Shown one piece after another: positions 3,434 to 47,162 of a DNA stretch of 64,000 bases. The notes under the pieces are model-generated. The model had not been told where the DNA came from. It ran no database searches and was given only the letters and a program-made list of their open reading frames with translations. The position numbers and the translations under genes were made by a program. Position 1 is the first letter of the stretch, and the number at the start of each line of letters is the position of its first letter. Origin of the DNA: Candidatus Chisholmbacteria bacterium (lineage in GTDB: Bacteria; Patescibacteriota; Microgenomatia; UBA1400; Chisholmbacteraceae); the NCBI GenBank assembly GCA_963704905.1, contig CAVPHZ010000001.1, positions 451,438 to 515,437 on the forward strand, read 5' to 3'.

Positions 3434-4153
3434 TTGACTGCAATTACTATGCTTCGAAGAATAGTTGAGTTTACCAAACGAATCCATCCAGACAATGCTC
3501 GAATAGAGCTCATCCGAAGGACACTGGTTGTTTATGCAACTTTGTTTATTCTTTGGGGTCTGTATCGTCTTCTTTTGCGCTTACCTCTATTTATAGAGGA
3601 GATGATTATTAAGCCATTTATTTTTCTTCCACCTGCATTGTCTGTTATTGAAGGGGAAGATCGACGGCCAGGGAAACTTTTACGGGCTTTTGGATTTCAT
3701 AAATCAGGGATAGTTCTTTCCATCTATCTTGGTTTAACCCTAGGGGTTTCGTATTTTCTTGCAGTAGGTTTGGGGCGCTTGGTGTTTTCAGGGAGAGAGG
3801 TGTTCGGAATATTGCATATCTCTGGATATCAATTGATAACCGTCATTGTCATTTCAATAGCGACAGCTGTATGGGAGCAAATGATCTTTTCTGGGTTTTT
3901 TCTCTTGCGATTCCAGCGTGTACTTAATGATGAGTGGAGGAGTGTGACACTCACGGCTGTGTTGTTTACGCTTTTGCATCTCCCAATCTTAGTTCTTGAT
4001 GGGTCATTTCGACCACTGTTTGTAGTTATACAATTGGTGTTGATTTTTCTGGTTGGTTTTGGAAATGCTGTTCTGATGCTTCGAACTAAAAATGTCATTG
4101 CTCCGATCCTTTCGCATGCGTTTTGGGCAGTGGCGCTTCAGTTAGTCGTATAG
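3434..4153 (+). CDS. Polytopic membrane protein, CPBP (CAAX protease/Abi) family-like
   Basis: Multiple TM helices; motifs WEQMIFSGFF (EExxxR-like), FTLLH (FxxxH), LSHAFW (H-containing third motif). Confidence 0.4.
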   Translation: MTAITMLRRIVEFTKRIHPDNARIELIRRTLVVYATLFILWGLYRLLLRLPLFIEEMIIKPFIFLPPALSVIEGEDRRPGKLLRAFGFHKSGIVLSIYLGLTLGVSYFLAVGLGRLVFSGREVFGILHISGYQLITVIVISIATAVWEQMIFSGFFLLRFQRVLNDEWRSVTLTAVLFTLLHLPILVLDGSFRPLFVVIQLVLIFLVGFGNAVLMLRTKNVIAPILSHAFWAVALQLVV

Positions 4154-4212
4154 ATATTACCTCTGGTGAGTTTTGATATTTGCCCTAGTCGTGGTACAAT
4201 CCGCTCTAGCTT

Positions 4213-5460
4213 ATGGCTTCTTCTCGTCTTTCGAAAAACATTGCTCAACAAGTGAAAGCAAATTTTTCTGATCAAATCAGTTTTGCTTCTGCTCTGATTC
4301 GAGAAAAAAGTGAAAATCCTTTTACACCTGATGAGTCTCGTCCTAATGAGGCAATCGAGAAGAATGTGGCTGAGCTTATTTATGGTCAGCTTCAATCTTT
4401 TGGATTACAGCCCAAACGCATTGGAGCGACAAAAAATCGTCCGAATGTGGTTTGTTATTGGGGTCCACGGAGATTCCGTAAAAGTTTGATTCTCAATGGC
4501 AATATGGATACCACACCAGCGGGTGAAGATTACACACTCGAGCCTTTTTCGGGAGCAGTTCGAGATGGAAAGCTTTTTGGTGTTGGTGCTGCAGATATGA
4601 AAGGGACACTTTCTGCATATGTTTATGCGGTCAAGGCACTCCTTGATGTTGGCGTTAAACTTGATGGACGGCTGATTCTAGAATTTACTGTGGATGAGGA
4701 GCCTGGGGGTTGCAGTGAGCTTGGTACATCTTATTTGCTCAAACAAGGGATTCGAGCACGAGCGGCTATTATCGGAAAACCTGGGACGAAGAAAATTTCA
4801 ATTGGCAATAGAGGTGGATATCGGTTTAAGCTGACAACTTTTGGTGAGGCAGTGCACACCGGGAGGCGTGCTTGGGAGCGAAAGGAAGCAGGACGTAACG
4901 CGATTATGGATATGGCGAAGGCAGCTGTTTCGTTGGAAGATTTGGAGATTCCCTTTAAACCAGCTCGAGCTTTCTCTGGACGAACACCTGTATTTACTTT
5001 TCCGACAAAAATTTCAGGTGGCGTTTCGGTCAACACTGTTCCAGATAAGAGTGTGGCATATGGGGATGTTCGACTTATGCCAGGAAACAGTGATCGGCAA
5101 GTTAAGATTTGGATTCGAGAGAGGCTCGCTTCAATTCCAGGACTTCGATATGAGCTTGAAGACCTTCTCTTCGTGCCGTCGACGGAGATTGATCGCAAGG
5201 AAGAAGTCGTTGAGATTTTAGCGATTCAGGCTAAAGAAGTGTTGGGTTTTTCACCAAAAGTTGAAGGATCAGGGCCGTGGGGTGATGCGTGGATGCTGGT
5301 CACGCACGACATACCCACAGTGAGTGGCTTCGGACCAGATGGGGAAGGACATCATGGTGTGAATGAATGGGTTGATCTTGAGAGTTTACAGCAGGTGACT
5401 GAAATATATGCCCAGACTATTGTTGAATTTCTCGGACTTCGAAGTAAAGATGAATCCTAA
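4213..5460 (+). CDS. M20 family metallopeptidase (ArgE/DapE-like deacylase)
   Basis: LNGNMDTTP...GAADMKG metal-binding block typical of M20/ArgE/DapE; 415 aa. Confidence 0.7.
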   Translation: MASSRLSKNIAQQVKANFSDQISFASALIREKSENPFTPDESRPNEAIEKNVAELIYGQLQSFGLQPKRIGATKNRPNVVCYWGPRRFRKSLILNGNMDTTPAGEDYTLEPFSGAVRDGKLFGVGAADMKGTLSAYVYAVKALLDVGVKLDGRLILEFTVDEEPGGCSELGTSYLLKQGIRARAAIIGKPGTKKISIGNRGGYRFKLTTFGEAVHTGRRAWERKEAGRNAIMDMAKAAVSLEDLEIPFKPARAFSGRTPVFTFPTKISGGVSVNTVPDKSVAYGDVRLMPGNSDRQVKIWIRERLASIPGLRYELEDLLFVPSTEIDRKEEVVEILAIQAKEVLGFSPKVEGSGPWGDAWMLVTHDIPTVSGFGPDGEGHHGVNEWVDLESLQQVTEIYAQTIVEFLGLRSKDES

Positions 5461-5491
5461 TTCTCTTGTTATAGTGTAATATGATCGAACT

Positions 5492-6160
5492 ATGAAGAAT
5501 CGTACATTACATCTTATTTTTTTAAGTTTTGGTTTATCTGTTCTCACTTTTTCAGTATGGCGTTCAAATGCGACGTTTGTTTCTCTGGCTCTTGAATCTA
5601 AAAGCGAGGTGGCAGTTGAAAGCACTGCCTCCCCTATCACGATTGATGTTTCAGAGAGTGATTACTCATTGTTATATCCAGGACTGTTGCCGGATCATCC
5701 ACTCTATTTTATAAAAATGATTCGAGATCGTGTTCAGCTTTGGTTCACGAGAAATCCTCTTGCCAAAGCTCAGCTTATGCTTACTTATTCCGATAAGCGA
5801 TATGCAGCAGCGCTTGCGCTTGCCGAGAAAGGTAAATCAGGACTTGCTATTAGCACGGTGACAAAAGCAGCTCATTACACTGACCGATCATTGAATGAGG
5901 CAAAACGAGCGGAGGAGCAAGGTCAGGACGTTACACAGTATTATGAAAAATGTTTATCTGCTGTCATGAAGCACCAGGCTGTCTTAGCTGGTATTGTTTC
6001 TCGGGTGGCGAAAGACGCTCAAGGAGGTTTGAGCGATGCGATTCAACTCAACTCTCAAGATCAAGAGAAGGTTCTCGATCTTCTCGGCGGGAGTATGCAG
6101 GATCATGAGTCGACCTCAAGCGGAAACCCTTCCGAGTTAGAGGGTATGGATGAGCAGTGA
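5492..6160 (+). CDS. Secreted DUF5667-like protein
   Basis: N-terminal signal/TM; block YPGLLPDHPLYFIKMIRDRVQLWFTRNPLAKAQL...AAALALAEKGK matches the DUF5667 signature (LPGSPLYxLK...AELxLxFAEERLAEA) recalled from Patescibacteria proteins. Confidence 0.5.
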   Translation: MKNRTLHLIFLSFGLSVLTFSVWRSNATFVSLALESKSEVAVESTASPITIDVSESDYSLLYPGLLPDHPLYFIKMIRDRVQLWFTRNPLAKAQLMLTYSDKRYAAALALAEKGKSGLAISTVTKAAHYTDRSLNEAKRAEEQGQDVTQYYEKCLSAVMKHQAVLAGIVSRVAKDAQGGLSDAIQLNSQDQEKVLDLLGGSMQDHESTSSGNPSELEGMDEQ

Positions 6161-6240
6161 TTGTAGACATGTTTGTTCTTCCTTGATGCTTCTTCATTTC
6201 ATTGATACTTGTGGTATTGTAGAAACAATAACTTTTTTAC

Positions 6241-6413
6241 AGCGGAATCTTGTGTAAATCGAGAACTGTGCCGCAACTGTGACCAAGTCACATTTTGTCA
6301 TGTGACGCGGGAGTCAGGAACGCTAGTGAGAAAGTAAGATTTCCCGCGCAGGAAGAAACGTAGATGAACCTGAATTTATTTATAAATGCAACCTTCCTGT
6401 AGGAAGGTTTTTT
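6241..6413 (+). promoter_or_regulatory. Candidate cobalamin (B12) riboswitch leader with a terminator/RBS-sequestering hairpin
   Basis: Segments GCCGCAACTGTGA (resembles the conserved CCGCCACTGTAA block) and GAGTCAGGAACGC (B12-box-like, first 9 of 16 consensus positions match); GCGCGGG...CCCGCGC long-range pairing; ends in ACCTTCC-tgta-GGAAGGT + T6 hairpin that contains the GGAAGG RBS and abuts the ATG at 6414; downstream genes are a DUF4430 protein and an S-component-like membrane protein. Confidence 0.4.
6391..6413 (+). terminator. Intrinsic terminator/RBS-sequestering hairpin (expression platform of the leader)
   Basis: ACCTTCC tgta GGAAGGT followed by TTTTTT immediately before ATG 6414. 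Confidence 0.5.
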
Positions 6414-6845
6414 ATGAAGAAAAATGTTTTACTGACTTTTATTGCTTTTCTTGGATTGGCTGTTGGTTTCGTTTATTTTTACTTTACCTCTTTTCAATCT
6501 CCAACCGGTTTGGTTCCATTGAATGAAGTTACTGAAGTCGGTAATGATACGTATCTCTTGCGAGTTGATAAGGGAGATGCTCATCCAGTTACTCATGCCA
6601 GTACATATGCTGAAGGTCAGACAGCATTTGGTGTGCTGCAAGACTATGCAACACAGGAAGATATCAATCTTGTGGCAGAGCATTATGATTTTGGAGTTTT
6701 TGTAAAAGCCATTGATGGGCTTGAAGGTAATGAAGAGCGAGCGTGGATTTATTTTGTGAATGGTGAATCAGGCAGTATCGCGGCCGATCAATATCTATTA
6801 CAATCTGGAGATGTCGTGGAGTGGAGGTATGTCGAACCGAACTAA
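6414..6845 (+). CDS. DUF4430 domain protein (transcobalamin beta-domain-like, putative B12-binding) with N-terminal membrane anchor
   Basis: C-terminal block FGVFVKAIDGLEGNEERAWIYFVNGESGSIAADQYLLQSGDVVEWRY fits the DUF4430 pattern (f..I.G....yW.Y.VNG....ga..y.l..GD.i.W.y); N-terminal hydrophobic helix. Confidence 0.55.
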   Translation: MKKNVLLTFIAFLGLAVGFVYFYFTSFQSPTGLVPLNEVTEVGNDTYLLRVDKGDAHPVTHASTYAEGQTAFGVLQDYATQEDINLVAEHYDFGVFVKAIDGLEGNEERAWIYFVNGESGSIAADQYLLQSGDVVEWRYVEPN

Positions 6846-7437
6846 TACTTTTCGATGGATCTTATTTTTAAGTCTGGCATTCATTGCTTTTCTTGAGCGG
6901 GTGGTGTTTGACTTTGGACCAAATATTGAGTTAGTGACATTGAGCATGCTTCTTGCTAGCGCATATTTGGGATCATCATTTTCTATACTACTTGTGTTGA
7001 TCGTGTTATTTCTCTCTGATATTGTTCTGGGAACAACGAGTATTTTCCTGTTTACTTGGACTGGATTTCTCATACCTGCTTTTGTTTCCTCGCGTCTTTT
7101 TTCAAATATGCAACGAAGAAGGTTGCAGGGCGGATTTCCAGTGCTTTTCGGTTCGGTTCTCGGATTTAGTTCCAACTTATTTTTCTTTACTTGGACAAAT
7201 TTTGGAGTATGGCTGTTAGATGTTTGGGGGATGTATCCTCGAGATCTTTCAGGACTTCTTCTATCGTATATTCATGGATTGCCATTTTTGAAACTTCAGC
7301 TACTAAGCACATTGGTGTTTGTTCCGATTGGGTTTGCTGCTGTAGAAGTGGTACGAGCTCTCGCTCTTCAGCTGAAGGGGGATCGTGCTCTATTACGTGA
7401 ATTACTGCGACGCGCAGGGCTCTTTTCTTCATCGTAA
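6829..7437 (+). CDS. Small polytopic membrane protein, ECF S-component/BtuM-like (putative cobalamin uptake)
   Basis: About 6 TM helices over ~200 aa; ATG at 6829 preceded by GGAGG; 17-nt overlap with the DUF4430 gene; the track ORF 6760 start is probably too early. Confidence 0.35.
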   Translation: MSNRTNTFRWILFLSLAFIAFLERVVFDFGPNIELVTLSMLLASAYLGSSFSILLVLIVLFLSDIVLGTTSIFLFTWTGFLIPAFVSSRLFSNMQRRRLQGGFPVLFGSVLGFSSNLFFFTWTNFGVWLLDVWGMYPRDLSGLLLSYIHGLPFLKLQLLSTLVFVPIGFAAVEVVRALALQLKGDRALLRELLRRAGLFSSS

Positions 7438-7742
7438 ATCATTTCGATTTATCGGACCACTATTTATACCCTTACGGGTATTATTCGATAGGAAAATACT
7501 ATTTTTACTTTGGAGAAGTTTCTATTCTCTTTTTTTCTTCTCCGCTTATTTAAGATGTGTGAACATAAATGTTATGGCTGTTATAGCAAGACTATTAGTA
7601 TTAATTGAGTACAGAATATAATTTCGTTTTCTGAGCATGTTGTTTATTGTTCCTTTCTAGGTAGAAGTAAGGTATTCAATATATTCCTTTCTAACATCTC
7701 ACATCTGGATGATGTATATTGATGCTATTATTACTAGTTGAC

Positions 7743-7790
7743 AGTCTAGGACTAGTGGACTTACGCTCATATTGACACTACGGGTAGTGT
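7743..7790. promoter_or_regulatory. Candidate tandem NrdR boxes upstream of nrdR
   Basis: 16-bp palindrome ACACTACGGGTAGTGT (7775-7790) matches the NrdR-box outer consensus acaCwA....TwGtgt; weaker box AGTCTAGGACTAGTGG (7743-7758); centre-to-centre spacing 32 bp; located ~40-80 bp upstream of the nrdR ATG. Confidence 0.4.
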
Positions 7791-7825
7791 TTTTTTAATC
7801 GTAAAAATAAATACAACCATTTGAC

Positions 7826-8275
7826 ATGAAGTGCCCGTACTGCGGAAGCACAGAGAGCAGTGTACTTGAGAGTCGGCTCAATGAAGATGAGAATTCTATT
7901 CGACGTAGAAGAGAGTGTGGATCATGCGAAAAGCGATTCACTACTTATGAGCGAGTTGAAGGAATCGATTTAACAGTGGTAAAGAAAGATGGAGCACGTG
8001 AGTCTTTTGATAGAGAAAAAATAAAGAAAGGACTCATGAAAGCCACATGGAAACGGCCGGTGACGATAGAAGATATCGAGCGATTGATTGATAATGTCGA
8101 GCAGAAGCTTCGACGAAGGAGAAGCAATGAAATTAAAAGTTGGGAGATTGGCAATATGGTAATGACCAGATTAAAAAGAATTGACCCAGTTGGCTATTTA
8201 CTGTTTGCGAGTGTGTATCGTGATTTTCAGGACATTGATGATTTTATTAGGGAGTTAAAGAAGCTGGAGGATTAG
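7826..8275 (+). CDS. nrdR: Transcriptional repressor NrdR (Zn-ribbon + ATP-cone)
   Basis: MKCPYCGSTESSVLESRLNEDENSIRRRRECGSCEKRFTTYERVE is the canonical NrdR N-terminus; ATP-cone follows; 149 aa. Confidence 0.9.
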   Translation: MKCPYCGSTESSVLESRLNEDENSIRRRRECGSCEKRFTTYERVEGIDLTVVKKDGARESFDREKIKKGLMKATWKRPVTIEDIERLIDNVEQKLRRRRSNEIKSWEIGNMVMTRLKRIDPVGYLLFASVYRDFQDIDDFIRELKKLED

Positions 8276-8391
8276 ACGACTGCGGTGGCGGATCTTTGAT
8301 TGGTTTTATCAATTTAGGAGCCTGCCCTATTCGCCACCAATTCATATAGTAATTAATATGTTTCGATTTGTACTCTAGAGTAAATAACTTT

Positions 8392-10713
8392 ATGTCAGAG
8401 CTAAAACTTTTGCCCAGGACTATTCAGCGCACAGGTGTACCTCTCCGCAGGAAAACTAATGGATTTGCACCGAATGGTTTTCATCCCCAGCAGCTTAATT
8501 GGGTCATTCCCAATGGGGAAGTAAAACATATAAACGGTTTCGTTACCGAACCACATCCAGTTGTTGGTTGGGAGCAGAAGCGAATGAAAAAACGGATGCG
8601 GTTTGCATCTAGGTCTCTATCCACTGGATTGGGGCGTGCGGTTGCGAAGCGAACCATCCTGCGTGGTGAGGAAACATGGGAGGATGTTGCGGAACGGGTT
8701 GCAATTGGAAATACTTCGCTTCTTCCATCACATATGAGAACGCATGGAAAGGAAGAGTATGAGCTTCTAAAAAAACATGTTGCCAATGCGTCCTTGTTGA
8801 TGAGCGGTCGACATTTGCAACATGGAGATGCAACACAAGCAACTCGGAATATGGAGGTGTTTACCAACTGCTCGACAGCTTCAGTGACGTTTATTCTCTT
8901 CTATTTACTCTTAAACGGTTCTGGTGTTGGACGAAGCTATGATGATGATATGTGTGTAGTTGATTGGGACTATATGCCGATTGTACGGTGTGTGTTGAAT
9001 GATAAGCACCCCGATTTTGTTTGGGGTGAGAATGAATCGGTGCGCGAGGCCAGGCATAAATATAACAAGGTGTATTGGTTCGAAGTACCTGACTCGCGAG
9101 AGGGATGGGCACAAGCGATTGAGAAAATAGAGGTGATGGCGTTTGAGCGAAAGTATAAGGATGAGGTGTTGGTTTTAGATTTTTCTAAGGTTCGTGAGAA
9201 GGGTCAGCCCATCCGAGGGATGCAGAACCGGCCGGCATCGGGACCAAAACCTCTGATGCATGCAATAGATAAACTTTCAACGATAAAAAATGCCGGCATG
9301 AAACCGTGGAAGCAGGCGATATTTGCAGATCATTACCTGGCTGAATGTGTATTGGTGGGTGGTGCTCGACGAGCGGCGCGGATTGCTACGAAGACGTGGA
9401 ACGATTCTGATATTTTTGAGTTTATTAATATCAAAAAGGGTGGGTTTTTGTGGAGCGCGAACAACAGCGTGGCTGTGGATGATAAATTCTGGCAATTTAA
9501 AACCAAACATGCGAAAAAGGTGTTTGATGCGGTGATGCACGCCAGCTATCATCATGATACGGGTGAGCCAGGGTTTGTGAATCAACATCGGTTTGTCCAA
9601 AACGATGATAAGTACGATGGGTATTTGGATGGGAAGTTTGCTGTTAGTAACAAATACAAGCCAGGGAAGCAAACACAGAAGATGCTTTCATCAATTGCTA
9701 AAACAGCTTCTTCAAAGCTCTACACCCAAATTCCAAACCCCTGCGGAGAGATAACGCTAAATATGCTTGGCGGATATTGTGTGATTGGTGATGTTGTACC
9801 TTACTTTGCTCCGGACGTCGATGCAGCAGAAGAAGCATATAGAGTGATGACACGGGCACTCATGCGGGTGAATACTATGGATTCGCTTTATAACCGAGAA
9901 GTACAGCGGACGAACAGGATAGGGGTGGGAATGACCGGGATTCATGAGTTTGCCTGGAATTCATTTGGGTATGGTTTCTACGATCTTATTGATGAGGAAA
10001 AGAGTAAAGACTTTTGGAATACACTCTCACGATTCAAGCGAGCGGTGAATGATGAAGCTGAGAAGTATAGCAAGTTTTTAGGGCTTTCAGCACCTCATAC
10101 CAATACGACGATAAAACCGGCTGGAACGACATCAAAACTTTTTGGTCTGAGTGAAGGCGCTCATCTCCCTGCGATGCGTGAGTACATTCGCTGGGTGCAG
10201 TTTCGTAATGACGATCCCCTAGTAAAGCGTTATGAAAAAATGGGTTATCCCGTGAAGCGGTTGAAGACCTATGAAGGTACAACGGTAATTGGATTTCCAA
10301 CTCAACCGGAGACTTGCAGACTTAAGATGGGGAATAAGCTCGTAACTGCCGCAGAAGCAACACCGGAAGAGCAGTTTAAGTGGCTGATGCTTCTTGAAAA
10401 ATATTGGATTGTGGGAGTGGATGAAGAGGGTGTTCCACTTCCAGACACTGGGAATCAAGTATCATACACACTCAAATACAAGAAAGAAAATATCAGTTTC
10501 AGAAAATATAAAAACTTGATGCGGAAGTATCAATCACAAGTGAAATGCGTGAGTGTGATGCCACAGCAAGATGTCACGGCATATGAGTATCAGCCGGAGG
10601 AGGCGGTGACGATTGCTGATTTCATGAAGGTATTGAGCGAAGTCACTGGTGAGATGGATGAGGATATCGATTTGGAAGCGTTGCAATGTGACGCAGGTGC
10701 GTGTCCAATATGA
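8392..10713 (+). CDS. rtpR: Monomeric adenosylcobalamin-dependent ribonucleoside-triphosphate reductase (class II RNR, Lactobacillus leichmannii RTPR type)
   Basis: Blocks RTILRGEETWEDVAERVAIGN, PASGPKPLMHAID, FLWSANNSVAVDDKF, DTGEPGFVN, NPCGEITL (N-x-C-x-E thiyl radical loop) and the C-terminal CDAGACPI redox tail all align with recalled L. leichmannii RTPR; no ATP-cone; track ORF starts at TTG 8368, the ATG at 8392 (MSELK...) is the likelier start. Confidence 0.85.
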   Translation: MSELKLLPRTIQRTGVPLRRKTNGFAPNGFHPQQLNWVIPNGEVKHINGFVTEPHPVVGWEQKRMKKRMRFASRSLSTGLGRAVAKRTILRGEETWEDVAERVAIGNTSLLPSHMRTHGKEEYELLKKHVANASLLMSGRHLQHGDATQATRNMEVFTNCSTASVTFILFYLLLNGSGVGRSYDDDMCVVDWDYMPIVRCVLNDKHPDFVWGENESVREARHKYNKVYWFEVPDSREGWAQAIEKIEVMAFERKYKDEVLVLDFSKVREKGQPIRGMQNRPASGPKPLMHAIDKLSTIKNAGMKPWKQAIFADHYLAECVLVGGARRAARIATKTWNDSDIFEFINIKKGGFLWSANNSVAVDDKFWQFKTKHAKKVFDAVMHASYHHDTGEPGFVNQHRFVQNDDKYDGYLDGKFAVSNKYKPGKQTQKMLSSIAKTASSKLYTQIPNPCGEITLNMLGGYCVIGDVVPYFAPDVDAAEEAYRVMTRALMRVNTMDSLYNREVQRTNRIGVGMTGIHEFAWNSFGYGFYDLIDEEKSKDFWNTLSRFKRAVNDEAEKYSKFLGLSAPHTNTTIKPAGTTSKLFGLSEGAHLPAMREYIRWVQFRNDDPLVKRYEKMGYPVKRLKTYEGTTVIGFPTQPETCRLKMGNKLVTAAEATPEEQFKWLMLLEKYWIVGVDEEGVPLPDTGNQVSYTLKYKKENISFRKYKNLMRKYQSQVKCVSVMPQQDVTAYEYQPEEAVTIADFMKVLSEVTGEMDEDIDLEALQCDAGACPI

Positions 10714-10745
10714 TGGAAGGTAATTTAAGAGTTAGCGATCGAAGG

Positions 10746-10768
10746 CTCCGCTTGAGCGGAGTTTTTTA
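10746..10768 (+). terminator. Rho-independent terminator after the RTPR gene
   Basis: CTCCGC ttga GCGGAG followed by TTTTTTAT. Confidence 0.6.
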
Positions 10769-10799
10769 TTTGTTGTGATAAACGCGATACAATCCAGAT

Positions 10800-11222
10800 A
10801 TGAAATTTCGGTTGACGGTGAATGCAGCGATTTTCAATAAAGACGGGGAAGTGCTTCTTTGCAAAATGCCTAAGAATCAAGGTGTTTATCCTGGACAATG
10901 GGCGCTGCCGGGCGGTGGGATGGAAGAGGATGAGCAGATGCTTGATGCCTTGAAGCGGGAGATTAAGGAGGAAGTTGGTTTGGATGTTACTGATATTGTT
11001 CCCATACATTTTCAAGATGATGAGCGGATAAAATTATTGCGAAATGGCGGAGAAGAAGCAGTGTATATGATCCATCTTGTTTTTCAAGCAAAGGCGGATT
11101 CGAATAGCGTCACAATAAATGATGAGTTTGAGGATTATGCATGGGTTGGAAAAAGAGATTTAACAAAGTACGATTTAAATAGAGCAACAATAAATACATT
11201 TACACAATTAGGATGGATATGA
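10800..11222 (+). CDS. NUDIX hydrolase
   Basis: Nudix box GGGMEEDEQMLDALKREIKEEVGL (GX5EX7REUXEEXGU). Confidence 0.75.
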   Translation: MKFRLTVNAAIFNKDGEVLLCKMPKNQGVYPGQWALPGGGMEEDEQMLDALKREIKEEVGLDVTDIVPIHFQDDERIKLLRNGGEEAVYMIHLVFQAKADSNSVTINDEFEDYAWVGKRDLTKYDLNRATINTFTQLGWI

Positions 11223-11617
11223 AACGGATAAAAGTTGGTGTTTTGTTACTATTGCTGCTTCTTGTTCTCCTTTGGTTATTTTTCTACTTCCGCGAAATTT
11301 TACACAAAGAGATGTTGTCATTTGAAGAGCATCCACTCAATTTCTGCAGTGTTCATGAGGATTGTTTTATTTACTCGTACTCAAATTGTGGTTGCACTGC
11401 TCGCCATGCTATTAATATCCAATACGAGAATGATAAAGATGTGCTTGAGAAATATTACCCAATTACACCTAAGGAAGAATGTACTGCTGTTTGTGGAACT
11501 AGTGCTCCAGGTACATATCAAGCCTTTTGTAGAGATGGTTTATGCGGTTTGCGATTTTCGTCATCTCTTGAAAAAAAATCTCGCCTAGATAAATTTTTAG
11601 ATATTCTTTATTACTAA
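11213..11617 (+). CDS. Hypothetical membrane-anchored cysteine-rich small protein
   Basis: N-terminal poly-Leu TM; 10 Cys in ~100 aa of extracytoplasmic region; no recognisable family. Confidence 0.3.
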   Translation: MDMKRIKVGVLLLLLLLVLLWLFFYFREILHKEMLSFEEHPLNFCSVHEDCFIYSYSNCGCTARHAINIQYENDKDVLEKYYPITPKEECTAVCGTSAPGTYQAFCRDGLCGLRFSSSLEKKSRLDKFLDILYY

Positions 11618-11628
11618 ACTGGCTCAGC

Positions 11629-12075
11629 ATGAGAATTCAGCTCAAACACGGAGAGAAATGTGATCATTGTGGGTTACGGTATGTCCGTGATGTGGCTGCG
11701 GATGCGATTGCAGTTGCTGATGGAAAGATTGCTTTAATTAAGCGTAGTAAGGAGCCCAGTAAAGGTATGTGGGCATTGCCTGGTGGAATGTTAGATTGGG
11801 ATGAGAGCGCGGAGGAGGCGGTGGTAAGGGAGTTTGAAGAAGAGACTAGTCTCAAAGGTAAGTTGGGACGTTTTGTTGGTGTCTACTCTGATCCGAATAG
11901 AGATTCATTTCAACGGGTGGCGGTTGTGTATGAGGTTGTGGTTGTGGGTGGGAAGCTCAATGCTAGTGATGATGCAGCAGATGCCAAGTGGTTTCCGCTT
12001 GATGATTTACCGGAGTTAGCTGTGGATCATGGGAAGATGGTGGAGGATTACAAGCGAATAGTAGAGAGTGAATGA
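11629..12075 (+). CDS. NUDIX hydrolase with N-terminal Zn-ribbon-like CxxC
   Basis: Nudix box GGMLDWDESAEEAVVREFEEETSL; N-terminal CDHCG. Confidence 0.75.
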   Translation: MRIQLKHGEKCDHCGLRYVRDVAADAIAVADGKIALIKRSKEPSKGMWALPGGMLDWDESAEEAVVREFEEETSLKGKLGRFVGVYSDPNRDSFQRVAVVYEVVVVGGKLNASDDAADAKWFPLDDLPELAVDHGKMVEDYKRIVESE

Positions 12076-12401
12076 TGAAATTTGAAGAGATTGTAAAGAA
12101 AACTAAAGAGTTAGATAGCATGTTTAAACAACGGTTTGATACGCGAGATCGGGCGTTGGATTTGGTTGAAGAGGTGGGAGAACTGGCTCAGGCGATGCAG
12201 ATATTTGAAAAGCGGAAGCTAACGAATGATCCAAGCAAGAGAAGAAGCAAAAAAGATCTAGCTGACGCCCTTGCTGATATTTTGTATGATGTCATTCTGC
12301 TTGCAGGGCAATATGAGATCAATCTCGAAAAAGAGTATATTGAGATGCTTGAGCGATTGAAAGAAAGAGTTGGTAGAGGAGAATTTGATGGCAATGAATG
12401 A
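12072..12401 (+). CDS. MazG-like nucleotide pyrophosphohydrolase domain protein
   Basis: LDLVEEVGELAQAM ... LADALADILYDVILLA matches the MazG/NTP-PPase EExGE and second helix; overlaps the upstream NUDIX gene by 4 nt. Confidence 0.6.
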   Translation: MMKFEEIVKKTKELDSMFKQRFDTRDRALDLVEEVGELAQAMQIFEKRKLTNDPSKRRSKKDLADALADILYDVILLAGQYEINLEKEYIEMLERLKERVGRGEFDGNE

Positions 12402-12455
12402 CACCAAGATAACTGTTGATGACAATCAAGAAGGTTAATTTTTTAAAAACTCAAT

Positions 12456-14738
12456 TTGTTTATGGATCGTTCAAAAACCTCTCTGATTAAGAAAATTCAA
12501 AAACGGAATGGACGAGTTGTTGATTTTGATGAGTTAAAAATTACCAATGCGATAACGCTTGCTGGTGAGCGGACCGGAGAGATTGGATCATTGGAGGCGA
12601 AACGATTGACTGGGATTGTTGTCCATCTTCTCGGTAAGGCGAATGGTGATCATATTCCTACAGTTGAGTATGTTCAAGATACGGTTGAGCAAGTGCTGAT
12701 GGCAGCGTCACATTTTCAGACTGCAAAAGCGTACATTATTTTTCGAAAAGATCAGGCTCAGCTTCGTGCAGCGCGCCACGTCATTGGAGTGGAAGATGAT
12801 TTGGGAATGACTGTCAATGCCCTTAAAGCAATGGCTAGGCGGTATTTGACACAAGATGCGAAGGGTAACGTGATTGAAACGCCAAGGCAGGCAGTTGAAC
12901 GGGTTGCACGAACGGTTGCCTCTGCAGAACACACCAAGAAAAAAACCTGGGAAAAGAAGTTTGCGGAGATGATTGGCAGTTTTCGATTTGTACCGGCCGG
13001 GTGTTATTTTCGTGGTGCAGGGAGAAAACGCGGTTTACTGGCGAATTGCTTTGTGTTACCTGTCGAAGATGATATGACGAAGATTTTCGACTCGGTGAAA
13101 TGGACGGCACTTATTCATCAAGCTGGTGGCGGAACCGGATATAACTTTTCAAAGTTGCGACCGAAAGGCGATGTGGTTAGTGGAGGTGGCTTTGCTTCTG
13201 GACCAGTATCTTTCATGAAAGCGTTTGATGCGGCAACGGAAATTGTCATGCTGGGAGGCCGTCACCGTGGGGCGAATATGGGAATTCTCAATGCTGATCA
13301 TCCTGATATTTATGATTTCATTACCTGTAAGACTCAAGAGGGGCAGATTAGTAATTTCAATATTTCAATTGGAGCGAGTGATGCGTTTATGGAAGCAGTT
13401 TCAAAAGATAAAGCCTGGAAGCTTTTGAATCCCCGAACTGGTGAGGTGGTCCGTACTGTGGGAGCCAAAAGCATCTTTGATCAAGCTGTAGCGCTCGCAT
13501 GGAAGACGGGAGATCCCGGGATGATTTATCTTGATACGATTAATAAAAATAATGCACTGTATGATGCCTTGGGCCCGATTGATGCAACCAACCCTTGCGG
13601 TGAGCAGCCTCTCCATCCATTTGACGTTTGTAATTTGGGATCGATTAATCTTGCTAGCATGGTTTTGGGAGGGATGGGAAATGGTGTGGTCCGAAGGAGT
13701 GTCGATTGGAAGGGGCTTGAAGAAACTACAAGACTTGCAGTTCGGTTTTTGGATGATGGGATCGATGCAAGTGATTATCCCATTGCTCAAATTGATCAGA
13801 TGGCAAAACGGATTCGTCGAATCGGTATGGGAGTAATGGGTTGGGCGGATATGTTGCTACAGCTACGGATTCGATATGACTCTAATGAAGCTGTGAAGCT
13901 GGCAGAAAAGGTGATGCACTTCATTCAACAGGTGAGTTGGGAAGAAAGCGCAAAGCTGGCTCGCGAGAAGGGTGCATTCCCGCTATGGAAAGAGAGTCAG
14001 TATGCAAAACGACATCCAGTTTTAAGCAAGCGTGGTGCGAAGCGGGGAGTAAAAGTACGTAATGTTGCCATTACCACAATTGCTCCAACAGGAACTATCA
14101 GTATGCTTGCAGATTGTAGCTCGGGTATTGAGCCAGTGTTTGCACTGGCGTATGTTAAAAATGTGATAGACCAACACGGATTGACGTATACGAATAAGTA
14201 TTTTGTACATGAGCTACGATCTACTCTGGGAGATAGTCGAACTGCTCGAGTGGACGATGTCTTACATGATGTATCCAAAACTGGGAGTGTTTCGCATGTA
14301 ACCGGCGTACAAAAATGGATCAAGAGTGTATTTCGGACAGCCCACGATATTTCTCCAGCATGGCATGTGAAGATGCAAGCGGCTTTTCAGAAACATACTG
14401 ACAATGCGGTAAGCAAAACCATCAATTTTGCAGAGTCGGCGACTATTGAAGATATTGAAAAAGCATATTTAACTGCGTGGGAGATGGGTTGCAAAGGCAT
14501 TACTATTTATCGTGATAAGAGCAAGAGCGTTCAGATATTGCAAACTGATACTACTGAGACGACCAAAGAGACTCCAATACAGAGCAAAATTTCAATTACC
14601 CCACTGGCTCTTCAGGCAGAGGTTTCTGGAAATGAGGGACAACAAGAAGATATGTGTCCCGAGTGCGGTGGATTTATGTATTTTGCGGAAGGGTGTAGCA
14701 CTTGTCAGCAGTGCGGGTATAGCAAGTGTGAAGTGTAG
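12456..14738 (+). CDS. nrdJ: Adenosylcobalamin-dependent ribonucleotide reductase, class II NrdJ type, with N-terminal ATP-cone and C-terminal Zn-ribbon
   Basis: ATP-cone KIQKRNGRVVDFDELKITNAI; active-site loop NPCGEQPLHPFDVCNLGSINL; C-terminal CPECGG...CSTCQQCG; 760 aa. Confidence 0.85.
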   Translation: MFMDRSKTSLIKKIQKRNGRVVDFDELKITNAITLAGERTGEIGSLEAKRLTGIVVHLLGKANGDHIPTVEYVQDTVEQVLMAASHFQTAKAYIIFRKDQAQLRAARHVIGVEDDLGMTVNALKAMARRYLTQDAKGNVIETPRQAVERVARTVASAEHTKKKTWEKKFAEMIGSFRFVPAGCYFRGAGRKRGLLANCFVLPVEDDMTKIFDSVKWTALIHQAGGGTGYNFSKLRPKGDVVSGGGFASGPVSFMKAFDAATEIVMLGGRHRGANMGILNADHPDIYDFITCKTQEGQISNFNISIGASDAFMEAVSKDKAWKLLNPRTGEVVRTVGAKSIFDQAVALAWKTGDPGMIYLDTINKNNALYDALGPIDATNPCGEQPLHPFDVCNLGSINLASMVLGGMGNGVVRRSVDWKGLEETTRLAVRFLDDGIDASDYPIAQIDQMAKRIRRIGMGVMGWADMLLQLRIRYDSNEAVKLAEKVMHFIQQVSWEESAKLAREKGAFPLWKESQYAKRHPVLSKRGAKRGVKVRNVAITTIAPTGTISMLADCSSGIEPVFALAYVKNVIDQHGLTYTNKYFVHELRSTLGDSRTARVDDVLHDVSKTGSVSHVTGVQKWIKSVFRTAHDISPAWHVKMQAAFQKHTDNAVSKTINFAESATIEDIEKAYLTAWEMGCKGITIYRDKSKSVQILQTDTTETTKETPIQSKISITPLALQAEVSGNEGQQEDMCPECGGFMYFAEGCSTCQQCGYSKCEV

Positions 14739-15959
14739 TTAGGTATACAGCTGCATTAGTTCTTCGAGCACTTCATGTTTATTTCTTGGTGCGAGGATAT
14801 AGTCTTGAAGTTGCGGATCTTCTTTTACTGCTTGCATTGATTTGAATGCTACCTCTCTAGCGAAAAAGGCTAACATCTCTTCGATTTCAATGACTTCTAC
14901 ACTTATTGGTAAAAAATGTTGTTTTTCTGCTGCTTGCGGGAGTGAGTTTGTGTAGATGAGAGCTTTAATTGTTCCAACATCTCCTATGGCAGCGAGGTTC
15001 TTCATATATTCTCCGCTTAAGACTCCATGTGAGAGCACTACTATAGTTTCCGGCGATCCATAGCTATGGAGACCTTTTCCTGTCGTTAGCATTGATTGAA
15101 AACTTGCTCCGACATCATCATATACTATGGTTCTTTTTCCTTGAGGGTTTCCAAGAACAATATCCTGGGATGTAACTTTTCCGGCTTCCGGTCTATCCTT
15201 TTTTAAGACCGTTAACCCAATATTTAAGTTAGTTCTATAGTTGAGAATGTTTACGAGGTTATGGCAGGCTTGTGCAGCACCAATATCGAGTGCAACGATA
15301 TCTGTATTCCCATCTACCCAACCATACTTGATTAACCAATCTGCAGCAATCGGTGCTGTTGAGAGGCACAGTGTCTCCATGTTTTCTTCAAAGAAATCAA
15401 CGGCTTCTTTGCTGTGAGGGTGAGTAAAGATTACTTCGGAATATCCAACCGATGCCATAGTATAGGCTGCAATTTGCGCTGTCACAGCCTCTCTGGCTTC
15501 TTGTTGCCAATATTTTCTCATTCTTTTGGGGCTGTTTACATCTTCGCGAAGTTCAGCGTAGGGAAGTACAGCGATTAATCTATCTGTGAGTGTTTGCTCA
15601 TTACTGTGTCGGCTTTGAGTAAATGCGTTACCGACTTCGAATATGCTCCACATTGCCTCTGGAAATGGGGGGGCTAACCACATTGGAGCAATGACACAAT
15701 CTGAGCGAAAATTTGAATCCCGTTCGAGAGCAGCATAGAGGGGAGAATTGTCAGAAAATCTGTCAGTATGGCCAATTGGAAGTCTTCTTCCCGGTATTGT
15801 TTGATTGTTTTCGTCTGTTGCTGCAAGATTGACAATTCTCCTGTAGAAATCGTGGTGATATTTGGAGAAGTATGGATGATAAGCAACGGAAATTCTTTGT
15901 CCTTCGGGAGGATGTTGATGCTCTAAGCTTAAGTTTCTTGATCGTTCTGGGTTGGTCAT
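14739..15959 (-). CDS. Ribose-phosphate pyrophosphokinase (PRPP synthetase) family protein with divergent N-terminal ~130 aa
   Basis: Blocks VLPYAELREDVNSPKR (cf. VIPYFGYARQDRK), VIFTHPHSKEAVDFF (cf. VLTMDLHAGQIQGFF), KRTIVYDDVGASFQSML...VVLSHGVLSG (cf. ILVDDMIDTAGTL...YATHPVLSG), LIYTNSLP (cf. VVTDTIP). Confidence 0.55.
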   Translation of the reverse strand: MTNPERSRNLSLEHQHPPEGQRISVAYHPYFSKYHHDFYRRIVNLAATDENNQTIPGRRLPIGHTDRFSDNSPLYAALERDSNFRSDCVIAPMWLAPPFPEAMWSIFEVGNAFTQSRHSNEQTLTDRLIAVLPYAELREDVNSPKRMRKYWQQEAREAVTAQIAAYTMASVGYSEVIFTHPHSKEAVDFFEENMETLCLSTAPIAADWLIKYGWVDGNTDIVALDIGAAQACHNLVNILNYRTNLNIGLTVLKKDRPEAGKVTSQDIVLGNPQGKRTIVYDDVGASFQSMLTTGKGLHSYGSPETIVVLSHGVLSGEYMKNLAAIGDVGTIKALIYTNSLPQAAEKQHFLPISVEVIEIEEMLAFFAREVAFKSMQAVKEDPQLQDYILAPRNKHEVLEELMQLYT

Positions 15960-16069: not shown

Positions 16070-16700
16070 GTGACTATGAAACTTGTTTTAGCTTCGGGAT
16101 CGGAACGTAGGCGACACCTTCTTTCATGGCTTAAGATTCCTTTTGAGGTGGTTGTTTCTGACTTTGACGAATCTTCTGTTACGAGGATAAAATCCATCAA
16201 CATTGGTGGAGCGATTAGCAATCGAGAAGGCAAAGGTGGTTGCACGACAATTTCGGAAACATGATGCACTTATCATTGGGTCGGATACGATTGTTCATGT
16301 CGATGGAGAGATTGTTGGGAAGCCAAGGGATAAAAAGGATGCGGTGCGCATTTTGAAAAAACTATCTGGTAAAACGCATAAGGTGTATACAGGTGTTTCG
16401 GTTATCAACGCTCGGACCGGAAAGATAGTTTCAGGAGTTGATCGAACTTCAGTGACGTTTCGAAAACTTACTCGTAAACAAATTCGTGAGTATGTTGCAA
16501 CCGGGGAACCTTTAGATAAGGGTGGGGCGTATGCGATTCAGATGGGGGCGGCTGATTTTGTTGAAAAGGTCGATGGCAGTTACACTAATGTGGTTGGTTT
16601 ACCACTATTAGTATTACAACGATTGTTAGAGCAGCAAGGATTCATTATTAGAGATGATGTTTCTCGAATTATTTTTTCGCATACCGATTATTATAGCTAA
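16070..16700 (+). pseudogene. maf: Maf-like nucleoside-triphosphate pyrophosphatase, split across two frames by a frameshift near 16185-16200
   Basis: Frame A (16070-16264) gives MKLVLASGSERRRHLLSWLKIPFEVVVSDFDE (Maf N-terminus); frame B (TTG 16203-16700) gives LAIEKAKVVARQF...IGSDTIVHVDGEIVGKPRDKKDA...LSGKTHKVYTGV (rest of Maf); TAA at 16188 in frame B. Maf identity is confident; pseudogene status versus an assembly error is not. Confidence 0.5.
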
Positions 16701-21801: not shown

Positions 21802-21880
21802 GGCGTATTGATTGTTCAGAGCAGAGTTAATTGATGAGGATTTGAGGATTTGATTGAGTTTTGTATACAATAGATAGTGC

Positions 21881-36956: not shown

Positions 36957-37297
36957 TGAAACTTCGAAATGTCATTTTCTATGTAAAAGATCTTGAAAAA
37001 TCTAAGGATTTTTATCACAAACTCGGATTTGAGATGACTCAGGATTTTGGTAGCTTTATCTCGTACAAAACAGATGATGATGAAATCTATTTTTCCTTAA
37101 ACTCAACTCTTACTGAAGATAGAGTACCAGGAAGGCAAGTCTGTGTTTTTTGGACGGAAGATATTGAGGCTGGATTTGAGAAAATGAAAGAATTAGGTGT
37201 TGAGTTTGTTGAAGAGTTGTACGAAGCACCGTTTGGACGAACATTTTCAATTCGAGATATTGATGGGAATAAAATTGAGTATGTGGAGAAGAAATGA
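36956..37297 (+). CDS. VOC family (glyoxalase-like) protein
   Basis: LRNVIFYVKDLEKSKDFYHKLGFEM N-terminal VOC block; 113 aa. Confidence 0.55.
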   Translation: MKLRNVIFYVKDLEKSKDFYHKLGFEMTQDFGSFISYKTDDDEIYFSLNSTLTEDRVPGRQVCVFWTEDIEAGFEKMKELGVEFVEELYEAPFGRTFSIRDIDGNKIEYVEKK

Positions 37298-37782
37298 GAC
37301 TGACATCGAAACAAATTGAAACTTTGAAAAAGTTGATGGTTAATTCTGCAAAAAAAGGGAATTTGGCCAATTCCGGGATTGTTTTGGAAAAAGGGAAAAT
37401 GATTGCTTCAGCAGAGAGCTGGGTCGTGACTAACAATGATCAAACATCACATTCTGAAAGAATGCTAGTAGAGGAAGTTTGTAAGCGTAAGAAGAATTGT
37501 CTCACTCCCAAGTTAGATATGGTATCTGTAGTTGAGCCTTGTTTAATGTGCTTGAGTGCATGTTCTCAAGCTCTTTACGATCGAATCGGTTTTATTATTC
37601 CTGCTGGGAAATACGTAAAGAAGATTCCTTGGATCACTGATACCAACAGCATTGATAAAGAGAAAATTGCTTCACAGTTTTCTCATCAAGTTGAATATCT
37701 TCATCTATCTGAATATGAAGAAGAGTTTAGTAAAATATTTGAAAAAGAGATGGCTATTTTGTATAAGATCGAACTACCATGA
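37294..37782 (+). CDS. CDA-fold nucleoside/nucleotide deaminase-like protein
   Basis: HSERMLVEE (H-x-E) and EPCLMCLSAC (PCxxC) zinc-binding motifs. Confidence 0.5.
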   Translation: MRLTSKQIETLKKLMVNSAKKGNLANSGIVLEKGKMIASAESWVVTNNDQTSHSERMLVEEVCKRKKNCLTPKLDMVSVVEPCLMCLSACSQALYDRIGFIIPAGKYVKKIPWITDTNSIDKEKIASQFSHQVEYLHLSEYEEEFSKIFEKEMAILYKIELP

Positions 37783-43074: not shown

Positions 43075-43590
43075 TTGAGTATGAAGAGAAAACGGAAAGG
43101 AATGGTTTATGTTTTTACTGGGGATGGAAAGGGGAAGACAAGCGCTGCGATTGGAGTTGGGGTGCGTGCGGCTTTGATCGGAAAGAAAGTCGCAATGGTT
43201 TGTTGGTATAAGAGCAAAGATTGGGATGTAAGTGAGTATTTGTTACCTGAGAAACTTCGCAATTTTACGATTTACAATCTTGGTAAGGGATTTTTTATTA
43301 AGGACGCCCAATATCGACTTGGTGATTCGGAGATTAAGATCACACCACTCACAGGTGGCGGAAACGTTGTTGACCGTGCGAGCAAAGATCAGCATGTTCT
43401 TGCAGCTCAGGAAGCACTGAAAAAAGCTGAAAAACTCATAAAGAAAGTCGATGTGCTTATATTGGATGAGGTGAATACTGCCTGTTTTGACCGATTGGTT
43501 TCTGTTGGTGAAGTTCTGGATCTACTCAAGCAACGTGGTTCGACGCATGTGATTTTGACCGGGAGAAATGCACCGAGAGATGATCTTTAG
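43075..43590 (+). CDS. cobO: ATP:cob(I)alamin adenosyltransferase, CobA/CobO/BtuR family
   Basis: P-loop GMVYVFTGDGKGKTSAAIG ... LILDEVN; 171 aa. Confidence 0.7.
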   Translation: MSMKRKRKGMVYVFTGDGKGKTSAAIGVGVRAALIGKKVAMVCWYKSKDWDVSEYLLPEKLRNFTIYNLGKGFFIKDAQYRLGDSEIKITPLTGGGNVVDRASKDQHVLAAQEALKKAEKLIKKVDVLILDEVNTACFDRLVSVGEVLDLLKQRGSTHVILTGRNAPRDDL

Positions 43591-43834
43591 CAATTCTGCT
43601 GATCTTAGTGACGGAGATGAAGAAAGTGAAACATCCATATGATAAAGGGGTGAAGGCGGTTCGGGGATTGGATTTTTAGTTCAGGCTATTTCTATATTTT
43701 TCTCCAGTGTTCATTCGACCATTTGTCTGTGTTATCATGAATAGGTATGGATACATCTGGTGGAGGAGATCCACAAACATCACAACCTAATGATTCGGCT
43801 CAGGGTGAGCACTTTGATTGACTCAGGATAGGGA

Positions 43835-47090: not shown

Positions 47091-47162
47091 GCGCCCGTAG
47101 CTCAGGGGTAGAGCACCATGCTTATAACATGGGGGTCGATGGTTCGAAACCATCCGGGCGCA
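47091..47162 (+). tRNA. tRNA-Ile (anticodon UAU)
   Basis: Manual cloverleaf: acceptor GCGCCCG/CGGGCGC, D-stem GCTC/GAGC, anticodon stem CCATG/CATGG with loop CTTATAA, T-arm GATGG TTCGAAA CCATC; GGTATAAT -10 box just upstream. Confidence 0.6.

Follow-up and report, generated by a model that had tools for sequence, protein, structure and literature searches.

Why does a bacterium with a genome of ~0.77 Mb keep two different class II ribonucleotide reductases (RNRs), both of the vitamin B12-dependent type, in one locus, and in what respect do the two enzymes differ? The question is raised by a locus of Candidatus Chisholmbacteria bacterium (assembly GCA_963704905.1, contig CAVPHZ010000001.1, positions 451,438 to 515,437), analysed here as a stretch of 64 kb, the window, whose first letter is position 1 in all numbers below. 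The gene for the repressor NrdR is followed there by a monomeric-type adenosylcobalamin (AdoCbl)-dependent ribonucleoside-triphosphate reductase (NrdJm/RTPR-like; RTPR below), two Nudix hydrolases (NUDIX1 and NUDIX2) with a Cys-rich protein between them, a small MazG-type pyrophosphohydrolase and a dimeric-type class II reductase (NrdJ). To our knowledge, ribonucleotide reduction is the sole route to DNA precursors. Patescibacteria are regarded as metabolically minimal symbionts, and the reductases that they keep inform on what such cells make themselves. The explanation that we favour, and hold to be probable, is a conserved deoxynucleotide-supply locus of Microgenomates-type Patescibacteria (the Candidate Phyla Radiation, CPR), composed of a proximal and a distal unit and combining two reductases of the triphosphate lineage with pyrophosphatases. 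The most fitting description of the arrangement is a lineage-specific form of known parts, namely the NrdR regulon, NrdJm, a NrdJ of the cysteine-rich domain (CRD) type and the Nudix, MazG and Maf pyrophosphatases.

The gene set was obtained by an open reading frame (ORF) scan combined with profile searches. All seven ORFs from nrdR to NrdJ are located on the + strand where the initial annotation had placed them, and its list of co-directional genes was confirmed in full. The first of them, nrdR (7826..8275), encodes a Zn-ribbon plus ATP-cone repressor (TIGR00244, 194.7 bits against a cutoff of 124.65; PF22811 and PF03477). RTPR (8392..10713; 773 aa) was identified by the domain PF21995, its match to the structure 1L1L and its catalytic residues. 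It is followed by NUDIX1 (10800..11222), a NudI-type Nudix nucleoside triphosphatase (NF012016, 156.6 bits against 95), by the orphan membrane-anchored Cys-rich protein of 132 aa (11219..11617), by NUDIX2 (11629..12075; PF00293, 85.8 bits), by the MazG-type all-alpha NTP (nucleoside triphosphate) pyrophosphohydrolase of 109 aa (12072..12401; PF03819, 26 bits against 22, and PF01503, 24.7 bits) and finally by NrdJ (12462..14738; TIGR02504, 693.5 bits against 399.95), with an N-terminal ATP-cone and a C-terminal six-Cys zinc domain. The two reductase genes are 1.74 kb apart. Overlaps of 4–10 nt, originally described for the whole series, were found at two junctions only, NUDIX1/Cys-rich protein (4 or 10 nt) and NUDIX2/MazG (4 nt), the remaining junctions being gaps of 11 to 116 nt.

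Alignment of the window RTPR with the L. leichmannii enzyme (1L1L), its sole match in the PDB (E 2.6e-35), demonstrated that no catalytic Cys, Asn or Glu residue is missing, which settles the check proposed for the active-site triad and the reducing cysteines. Residues N449-P-C451-G-E453 align to N406/C408/E410 of the finger loop, C463 to C419 and C160 to C119; the redox Cys stands 20 residues past the S-G-R phosphate loop in both enzymes, and the tail CDAGACPI aligns to CEGGACPI, which holds the redox pair C731/C736 in L. leichmannii. The two enzymes further share the C-x4-C-P-I tail pattern and an insertion domain in place of a dimer interface (PF21995, at 44.4 bits in the window RTPR with a cutoff of 27), and neither has an ATP-cone; the Pfam profile search gave no ATP-cone match (PF03477) and no Cys-rich domain in RTPR, the C-terminus of which is a simple tail. 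They differ in the phosphate loop, M-S-G-R in place of P-S-G-R, in ~50 additional low-complexity residues at the N-terminus, which contain NG-x repeats, and in the pairing of the Patescibacteria enzyme with nrdR. The window RTPR also falls short of the TIGR02505 equivalog cutoff (228.5 against 340.05 bits) in a match that nevertheless runs end-to-end (residues 101–781 against positions 30–723 of the 724-position model). Judged from this score, the Patescibacteria RTPR clade is divergent from the characterised RTPRs. The start of the gene may be read in two ways, since the database copy begins at ATG 8392, and a protein of 781 aa would result from the in-frame TTG at 8368. Residues 1–70 (8392–8600) form a variable low-complexity region of NG-H, NG-F and NG-K repeats, and the N-terminus of this subclade is 35–100 aa longer than in the 716–726-aa majority of Patescibacteria RTPRs. 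A regulatory domain in the extension was considered and rejected on account of its low-complexity repeats, variable length and poor conservation.

The monomeric RTPR type had been regarded in the initial annotation as uncommon outside lactobacilli and phages and as possibly acquired by horizontal transfer. Neither view agrees with its distribution. More than 3,500 homologs were found; the best 120 are 70–81% identical (the protein's own database entry, 100%), and those among them with a named source are nearly all from Patescibacteria, Pacebacteria or Microgenomates, with one labelled archaeal (Pacearchaeota). A scan of one genome per species yielded 61 loci (handles such as L001 denote the related loci compared, among them the independent contigs L062–L064 and the more distant relatives L065–L068). 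In 58 of these 61 the upstream sequence needed to assess nrdR is present, and in 55 of the 58 nrdR lies directly upstream of RTPR. Identity of the enzyme is 66–81% across 60 Patescibacteria loci. Viral relatives exist in 29 IMG/VR contigs, but they are more distant (51–62% identical), and within 5 kb of them nrdR, Nudix, MazG and NrdJ genes are all lacking; this answers the suggested check for phage-like neighbours and argues against a phage origin. The viral relatives of NrdJ are only 32–41% identical. No compositional sign of transfer was detected for either reductase, both having a GC content of 0.453, which is +1.2 SD and inside the window spread. Because of the adjacency in 55 of 58 loci, the conserved tandem NrdR boxes described below and the Patescibacteria homologs, we read nrdR-RTPR as an ordinary housekeeping reductase cassette of Patescibacteria, neither rare nor foreign, and this corrects the tempting mis-annotation of RTPR as a foreign, phage-like gene. 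Among records L004–L061, many assemblies bearing nrdR-RTPR are titled 'uncultured Pseudomonadales', which looks like a taxonomic mislabel.

The second reductase is of a different build, and the proposal of two class II architectures was upheld. RTPR and NrdJ share ~23–25% identity over under half of their length; the former has PF21995 and no ATP-cone, the latter an ATP-cone and a six-Cys array. Pfam divides NrdJ into the ATP-cone, an all-alpha lgN domain and the lgC barrel, the barrel being homologous to T. maritima NrdJ (E 7e-110). The NPCGE motif and the cysteines of 'ANCF' and 'VCNLGS' align to C134/C322/C333 of the T. maritima enzyme, and the ATP-cone motif K-R-N-G-x4-F-D-x2-K-I is intact. 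Both reductases appear catalytically intact. A C-terminal Zn ribbon had been described, and the array is indeed there as CPEC-x9-CSTCQQC-x4-C, that is, C-x2-C-x9-C-x2-C-x2-C-x4-C, for which zinc binding is predicted. It is close to the array C-x2-C-x9-C-x2-C-x2-C-x5-C of S. nassauensis (C920/923/933/936/939/945; PMC5704485). The window NrdJ therefore resembles the dimeric NrdJd enzymes of T. maritima (1XJE) and S. nassauensis in its homologous barrel, catalytic residues and nearly identically spaced six-Cys array. Unlike them, it carries the N-terminal ATP-cone and has the apical loop P-A-G-C, whereas both of these NDP (nucleoside diphosphate) reducers have P-N-S-P. The region between barrel and Cys array is also much shorter than the 150–220-aa domain of S. 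nassauensis.

The loop bears directly on the idea that the two enzymes draw on different pools, RTPR reducing NTPs and NrdJ reducing NDPs, as had been assumed initially. Loop grafting has shown that the apical phosphate loop sets the specificity, P-N-S-P conferring use of NDPs and P-[A/S]-G-R use of NTPs (PMC8365446). RTPR has M-S-G-R, and its 120 homologs have MSGR (103) or LSGR (17). In NrdJ, the segment F-V-P-A-G-C-Y-F-R-G-A-G can be aligned with no gap to F-I-P-N-S-P-T-L-F-N-A-G of T. maritima, and P-A-G-C stands likewise gap-free opposite P-S-T-P of B. subtilis NrdE. Compared with the tested NTP motif, the glycine is kept and the arginine is replaced by cysteine. The 120 closest homologs of NrdJ show P-A-G-R (49), P-A-G-C (47), P-G-G-x (10) and P-A-G-G (7), and the NDP motif P-N-S-P occurs in none of the 120. 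Because these loops are P-A-G-R or P-A-G-C and never P-N-S-P, NrdJ is assigned by sequence to a triphosphate-type lineage in which the space-making glycine is invariant and the arginine variable. The assumed split between NTPs and NDPs was thus not sustained, and the reason for having several NrdJ here is apparently not one of NDP versus NTP.

The transcriptional signals divide the locus into two parts. With a matrix trained on other Patescibacteria loci, independently of the window, box 2 (ACACTACGGGTAGTGT, 7775..7790, + strand) was the top NrdR site of the window at 15.7 bits, and a weaker box 1 (AGTCTAGGACTAGTGG, 7743..7758, +) lies 32 bp upstream of it. Together they score 19.3 bits, the best pair in the 64 kb, the next best reaching 10.0. 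The placing of the start of an nrdR-headed locus at 7743 was exact, for the first box begins there. At the position of box 1, L064 holds AGGCTAGGAGTAGTGG, and in 46 of 56 related loci a distance of 31–33 bp separates the two best boxes upstream of nrdR. The arrangement follows the known NrdR regulon in its Zn-ribbon plus ATP-cone repressor and its tandem palindromic 16-bp boxes matching ACACwAtATaTwGTGT, 32 bp apart; it differs in that nrdR is itself the first gene of the regulated operon, and so autoregulated, and in that the second reductase is without boxes of its own. The matrix scan gave no NrdR box before RTPR, NUDIX1, NrdJ or the upstream DUF4430 gene, the best scores being −1.8 bits in 10714–10799 and −6.7 bits in 12402–12461.

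Downstream of RTPR, an intrinsic-terminator-like hairpin (10741–10766, + strand; 11-bp stem with 5 GC pairs) with a T-run to 10772 confirms the terminator predicted between RTPR and the Nudix genes. The hairpin has an ortholog in L064, and different hairpins occur in L003 and L004. Control of the whole island by NrdR had been claimed; since boxes stand only upstream of nrdR and the conserved terminator splits RTPR from the five distal genes, NrdR control of the latter is unproven, although read-through is possible. It is probable that the distal genes have another expression level or are served by a separate promoter. The stretch from nrdR to RTPR (8276–8391) was examined for a further riboswitch or leader, and this was rejected (fold z-score −0.94; no Rfam match at E up to 1). 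Elsewhere in the window, at 21865–21880, there is a single NrdR-box-like site (ATACAATAGATAGTGC) of 14.5 bits, second best in the window and without tandem partner, which abuts the start of a 608-aa ORF (21881–23707) having no Pfam match.

Among the genes between the reductases, NUDIX1 is the most readily assigned. It matches the NudI structures 6DT3, 3OGA and 3N77 (E ~1e-37), its Nudix box is readable as G-x5-E-x7-REIKEEVGL, and orthologs lie 3' of RTPR in L001, L003, L004, L063 and L064. E. coli NudI favours pyrimidine deoxynucleoside triphosphates. The closest structural relative of NUDIX2 by sequence is 2YYH, an '8-oxo-dGTPase domain' (1e-15), and its best NCBIfam matches are the Nudix domains of NadM-type ADP-ribose pyrophosphatases; orthologs are found in L001, L003, L062 and L064. 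A Zn-ribbon N-terminus had been ascribed to one of the Nudix proteins, but NUDIX2 has a single CxxC (C11, C14) and no four-ligand ribbon. The MazG-like protein has no NCBIfam match and so is placed in no subfamily; in the PDB it matches 2Q73 (2.4e-5) and, weakly, YpjD and DCTPP1. It has orthologs in L003 and L063, and MazG-type genes occupy the same position in L065–L067. Genes for NUDIX, MazG and Maf pyrophosphatases recur beside the reductases in L001, L003, L004 and L062–L068. These proteins are like the house-cleaning pyrophosphatases (E. coli NudI, MazG/DCTPP1, Maf) in that the NudI member exceeds the equivalog cutoff and MazG and Maf are Pfam members; they are unlike them in being clustered with reductases and in the minimal single-domain form of the 109-aa MazG-like protein, and their substrates are predicted from family membership.

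The Cys-rich protein stands apart. It has no Pfam or NCBIfam match, and a search of 5.8 billion proteins retrieved only the protein itself; an exhaustive search of 1.8 billion representatives brought up 4 remote relatives at E<1e-10 and a further 2 at E<1e-3. The protein thus belongs to a very small family, in which six cysteines are invariant. The genomic context of one relative is unrelated to RNR genes, the protein is missing from all related loci compared, and its gene is the GC-poorest of the region (0.353, −1.8 SD). As an orphan with these features it was rejected as a conserved operon component. What had been listed as a Cys-rich membrane peptide within the operon is accordingly a lineage-specific orphan insertion outside the system. 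The proposal of a coordinated supply and sanitation locus for deoxynucleoside triphosphates (dNTPs) stands in one part, the pyrophosphatases being syntenic with reductases in relatives, and is not supported in two, the coordination by NrdR and the Cys-rich member. Read from sequence, a combined dNTP-supply and dNTP-processing locus is a reasonable description.

Comparison of the related loci shows how NrdJ came to be considered a variable element. None of the 61 species-representative loci has a NrdJ-type gene within 10 kb of RTPR. The closest homologs of NrdJ, 55–75% identical, are from Microgenomates, Beckwithbacteria and Woesebacteria, and orthologs across several contigs are 63–75% identical. 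Three independent contigs do contain both reductases, in the orders nrdR-RTPR-Nudix-MazG-like-NrdJ (L062), nrdR-RTPR-unknown-Nudix-MazG-MazG-like-NrdJ (L063) and nrdR-RTPR-Nudix-Nudix-NrdJ followed at some distance by Maf (L064), the last also sharing the upstream genes of the window. The single-cell genome L003 has nrdR-RTPR-Nudix-Nudix-MazG-MazG-like-Maf and, further on, CobA, without NrdJ. In the more distant L065–L068, cytidylate kinase, Rce1-like, M20 peptidase and DUF5667 genes lie upstream, a synteny that the upstream genes of the window fit, and Maf and CobA lie downstream; the centre consists of nrdR, two other NrdJ-type paralogs (A and B), MazG genes (none in L068) and an ortholog of the window NrdJ. 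These loci therefore hold three class II reductases in tandem (in L065, for example, at 4075–12268), the B copy of L068 being interrupted by an intein. N-x-C-x-E is kept in 5 of the 6 non-intein A and B paralogs and in all orthologs of the window NrdJ, and the six-Cys tail in all of both; the motif scan did not resolve N-x-C-x-E in the intein-bearing L068 B copy. The first paralog of these arrays has P-N-G-R or P-N-S-P as its phosphate loop. On this comparison NrdJ is a variable, accessory element of the locus, yet a native and conserved paralog at a syntenic Microgenomates locus.

The possession of several NrdJ per genome is already documented in general (PMC8365446). Schell et al. 2021 recorded 1108 organisms that encode at least two NrdJ, 69% of which mix predicted NDP and NTP types and 113 of which have only NTP-type enzymes (PMC8365446). 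The present genome resembles these in having two class II reductases. It differs in that a single locus downstream of nrdR holds both, separated by 1.7 kb, and in that a NrdJm plus NrdJd-like pair occurs in a reduced Patescibacteria genome with relatives carrying three tandem paralogs. Patescibacteria are not mentioned in that study (PMC8365446), and the literature searched contained no publication on class II reductase arrays of this group. Mildly new are the presence of several paralogs in tandem arrays in genomes so small and the loop P-A-G-C, which is non-canonical, and two reductases here and three in relatives bear on why several NrdJ are kept, the question posed by Schell et al. 2021.

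How the locus may work can be outlined as follows. In the proximal unit, a promoter with two NrdR boxes 32 bp apart would drive nrdR and the housekeeping RTPR, predicted to be a monomeric, AdoCbl-dependent NTP reductase without ATP-cone and with a flexible CxxxxC tail of the thioredoxin-coupled kind. The distal unit (NUDIX1, the orphan, NUDIX2, MazG and NrdJ) would be transcribed, in view of the terminator, by read-through or from its own promoter. Since both loops are of the triphosphate type, the difference between the reductases was sought in allostery, transcription and electron donor. Only NrdJ has an ATP-cone, so that an off-switch by dATP would be possible only there. As to the donor, the six-Cys domain of S. 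nassauensis NrdJd mediates electron transfer and was not reduced by the thioredoxins and glutaredoxin tested, whereas NrdJm uses thioredoxin (PMC5704485); by analogy, RTPR would receive electrons from thioredoxin through its flexible Cys tail, as L. leichmannii RTPR does, whereas NrdJ would depend on its Cys-rich zinc domain and is predicted not to be thioredoxin-coupled. Most likely, then, the reductases differ in allosteric on/off control, transcriptional control and electron donor, and probably not in NDP/NTP preference, oxygen requirement or cofactor. The pyrophosphatases could act on the dNTP products, clearing dUTP and non-canonical dNTPs, and/or turning dCTP and dUTP into monophosphates for thymidylate synthesis. 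Because both reductases are predicted to yield dNTPs directly, a role in converting dUTP and dCTP to dUMP and dCMP seems as plausible as pure sanitation.

Cobalamin supply appears to be provided for at the same place. Upstream of nrdR lies a cobalamin riboswitch aptamer (6192..6341, +; Rfam RF00174, 37.5 bits against a gathering threshold of 31.5) with a terminator-like expression platform, the hairpin AACCTTCCTGTAGGAAGGTT followed by a T-run (6390–6409, +). Directly behind it is the gene of a DUF4430 protein with an N-terminal hydrophobic anchor, a putative extracytoplasmic B12 binder (6414..6845, +; PF14478, 55.2 bits), and then that of a DUF6580 membrane protein, a putative B12 transporter component (6829..7437, +; PF20221, 84 bits). 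Transcobalamin-family B12 binders have DUF4430 as their C-terminal domain (PMC4350170). No useful PDB relatives were found for either protein. The pair is also upstream of nrdR in L002, L004 and L068, and we regard it as a candidate riboswitch-controlled B12-uptake system. Further downstream, the ATP:corrinoid adenosyltransferase CobA/BtuR (43075..43676, +; PF02572, 112 bits; found by tblastn and manual frame reading) would make AdoCbl. With the riboswitch and putative uptake pair adjoining the reductases, the locus would couple putative B12 acquisition to two B12-dependent reductases. The lineage seems wholly reliant on B12-type reductases, which points to a vitamin dependency on host or community; with these enzymes beside a riboswitch-controlled putative uptake pair, and ancestrally beside an adenosyltransferase, that dependency becomes concrete.

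Several observations weigh against the favoured explanation. The link between pyrophosphatases and reductases is lineage-specific, for of the 50 species-representative loci whose downstream sequence is long enough, only 3 have NUDIX, MazG or Maf genes after RTPR. The loop P-A-G-C lacks the arginine of the tested NTP motif, so that the specificity of NrdJ is a prediction, and RTPR remains below its equivalog cutoff as noted. No terminator hairpin is present in L062 or L063, and operon structure may differ among relatives; a promoter for NUDIX1-NrdJ was searched for and none was identified, nor does a NrdR box precede these distal genes. Maf and CobA both carry frame disruptions in the window assembly. 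As for the Nudix proteins, NudI is also tied to non-nucleotide substrates, and NUDIX2 matches ADP-ribose pyrophosphatase (NadM-Nudix) domains at ~1e-12, about as well as MutT-type ones. From the last points one may construct the view that the Nudix and MazG proteins have nothing to do with dNTP metabolism, the substrates being, for instance, prenyl diphosphates for NudI and either ADP-ribose or NAD derivatives for NUDIX2, and that their position merely reflects tight packing. The NadM-type NCBIfam matches of NUDIX2, the varying composition of the cassette between relatives and the evidently unrelated orphan gene within it are in keeping with this. We nevertheless find it unlikely, as a NudI-type protein, a second Nudix, two MazG types and Maf recur by the reductases in the loci listed above, which packing alone would hardly produce.

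The least probable explanation in our judgement, and a decidedly improbable one, is that an RTPR acquired horizontally from lactobacilli or phages works alongside a native NrdJ that reduces NDPs, so that both pools are tapped, with the NUDIX/MazG trio purely sanitising. The two enzymes do fall into different class II subclasses, most multi-NrdJ genomes do combine predicted NDP and NTP types, and RTPR relatives do occur in viral contigs; but NrdJ lies in the P-A-G-R clade with no P-N-S-P among its 120 homologs, Patescibacteria have RTPR as their standard, nrdR-linked reductase, the viral copies are more distant and without nrdR, and RTPR has the same GC content as NrdJ, within the window range. 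Somewhat less improbable, though still doubtful, is a NrdJ without a distinct role, a functionally redundant relic of an ancestral multi-NrdJ array that one lineage after another is losing. Close relatives L001 and L003 have RTPR and pyrophosphatases with no NrdJ within reach, the three paralogs of other lineages suggest birth-and-death dynamics, and no NrdR box precedes NrdJ. Against this, NrdJ retains all catalytic residues, the ATP-cone motif and the six-Cys domain, and the 63–75% identity of its orthologs points to purifying selection in a genome of a size in which dead weight is rarely kept. On balance we return to the two-unit supply locus with reductases differing in control and donor. 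A bolder extension of it, to which we attach little weight, is that the arrays of two to three paralogs in genomes of ~0.8 Mb represent an undescribed division of labour by substrate, phosphorylation level or electron donor, with NudI, MazG and Maf channelling triphosphates to dTTP. If so, the loop variants P-A-G-C, P-A-G-G, P-G-G-T and P-N-G-R would mark specialised paralogs, and P-A-G-C could define a specificity class beyond the two established motifs.

The wider surroundings of the locus include the disrupted genes just mentioned. A Maf-type nucleotide pyrophosphatase is encoded at 16070..16700 (+; PF02545, 164 bits over 16203–16700, profile positions 44–186), and Maf is found 3' of the reductase cluster in L003 and L064–L068. 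In the window its frame is broken, the N-terminus being read in another frame; one A added in the A-run 16189–16192 would restore an intact protein, so that either the assembly has an indel here or the gene has recently become a pseudogene. In CobA/BtuR, two frame changes near 43575 and 43605 are needed to read the conserved C-terminal 24 residues, and if that disruption is real, imported corrinoids could not be adenosylated with this gene. CobA adjoins Maf in L066–L068, and the window CobA is followed by the same 776-aa DUF87-type gene. As Maf and CobA are adjacent in L066–L068, some 26 kb of accessory genes (16700–43075) have been inserted in the window lineage; this block encodes GNATs, HAD hydrolases, a radical SAM protein, a glycosyltransferase, an aldo-keto reductase, an aldehyde dehydrogenase, a glyoxalase and a deaminase. 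The latter, a dCMP/cytidine deaminase-family protein (37294..37782, +; PF00383, 35.2 bits) that is 69% identical to a deaminase-family gene product of L064, is a possible outlet from dCMP to dUMP.

Immediately 3' of NrdJ, a 406-aa protein is encoded on the − strand (14739–15959), convergent with NrdJ and with abutting stop codons. Similarity to ribose-phosphate diphosphokinase (77 bits, under the cutoff) is seen in the C-terminal half of this protein, the N-terminal 150 aa being unrelated. This PRPP (phosphoribosyl pyrophosphate)-synthetase-like gene has no counterpart in the related loci and was rejected as a part of the system, being a neighbour only. Further downstream, a tRNA-Ile gene (47091–47163) has the anticodon TAT, an uncommon bacterial way to read AUA, and is situated near tRNAs with CAT anticodons at 48994 and 49160.

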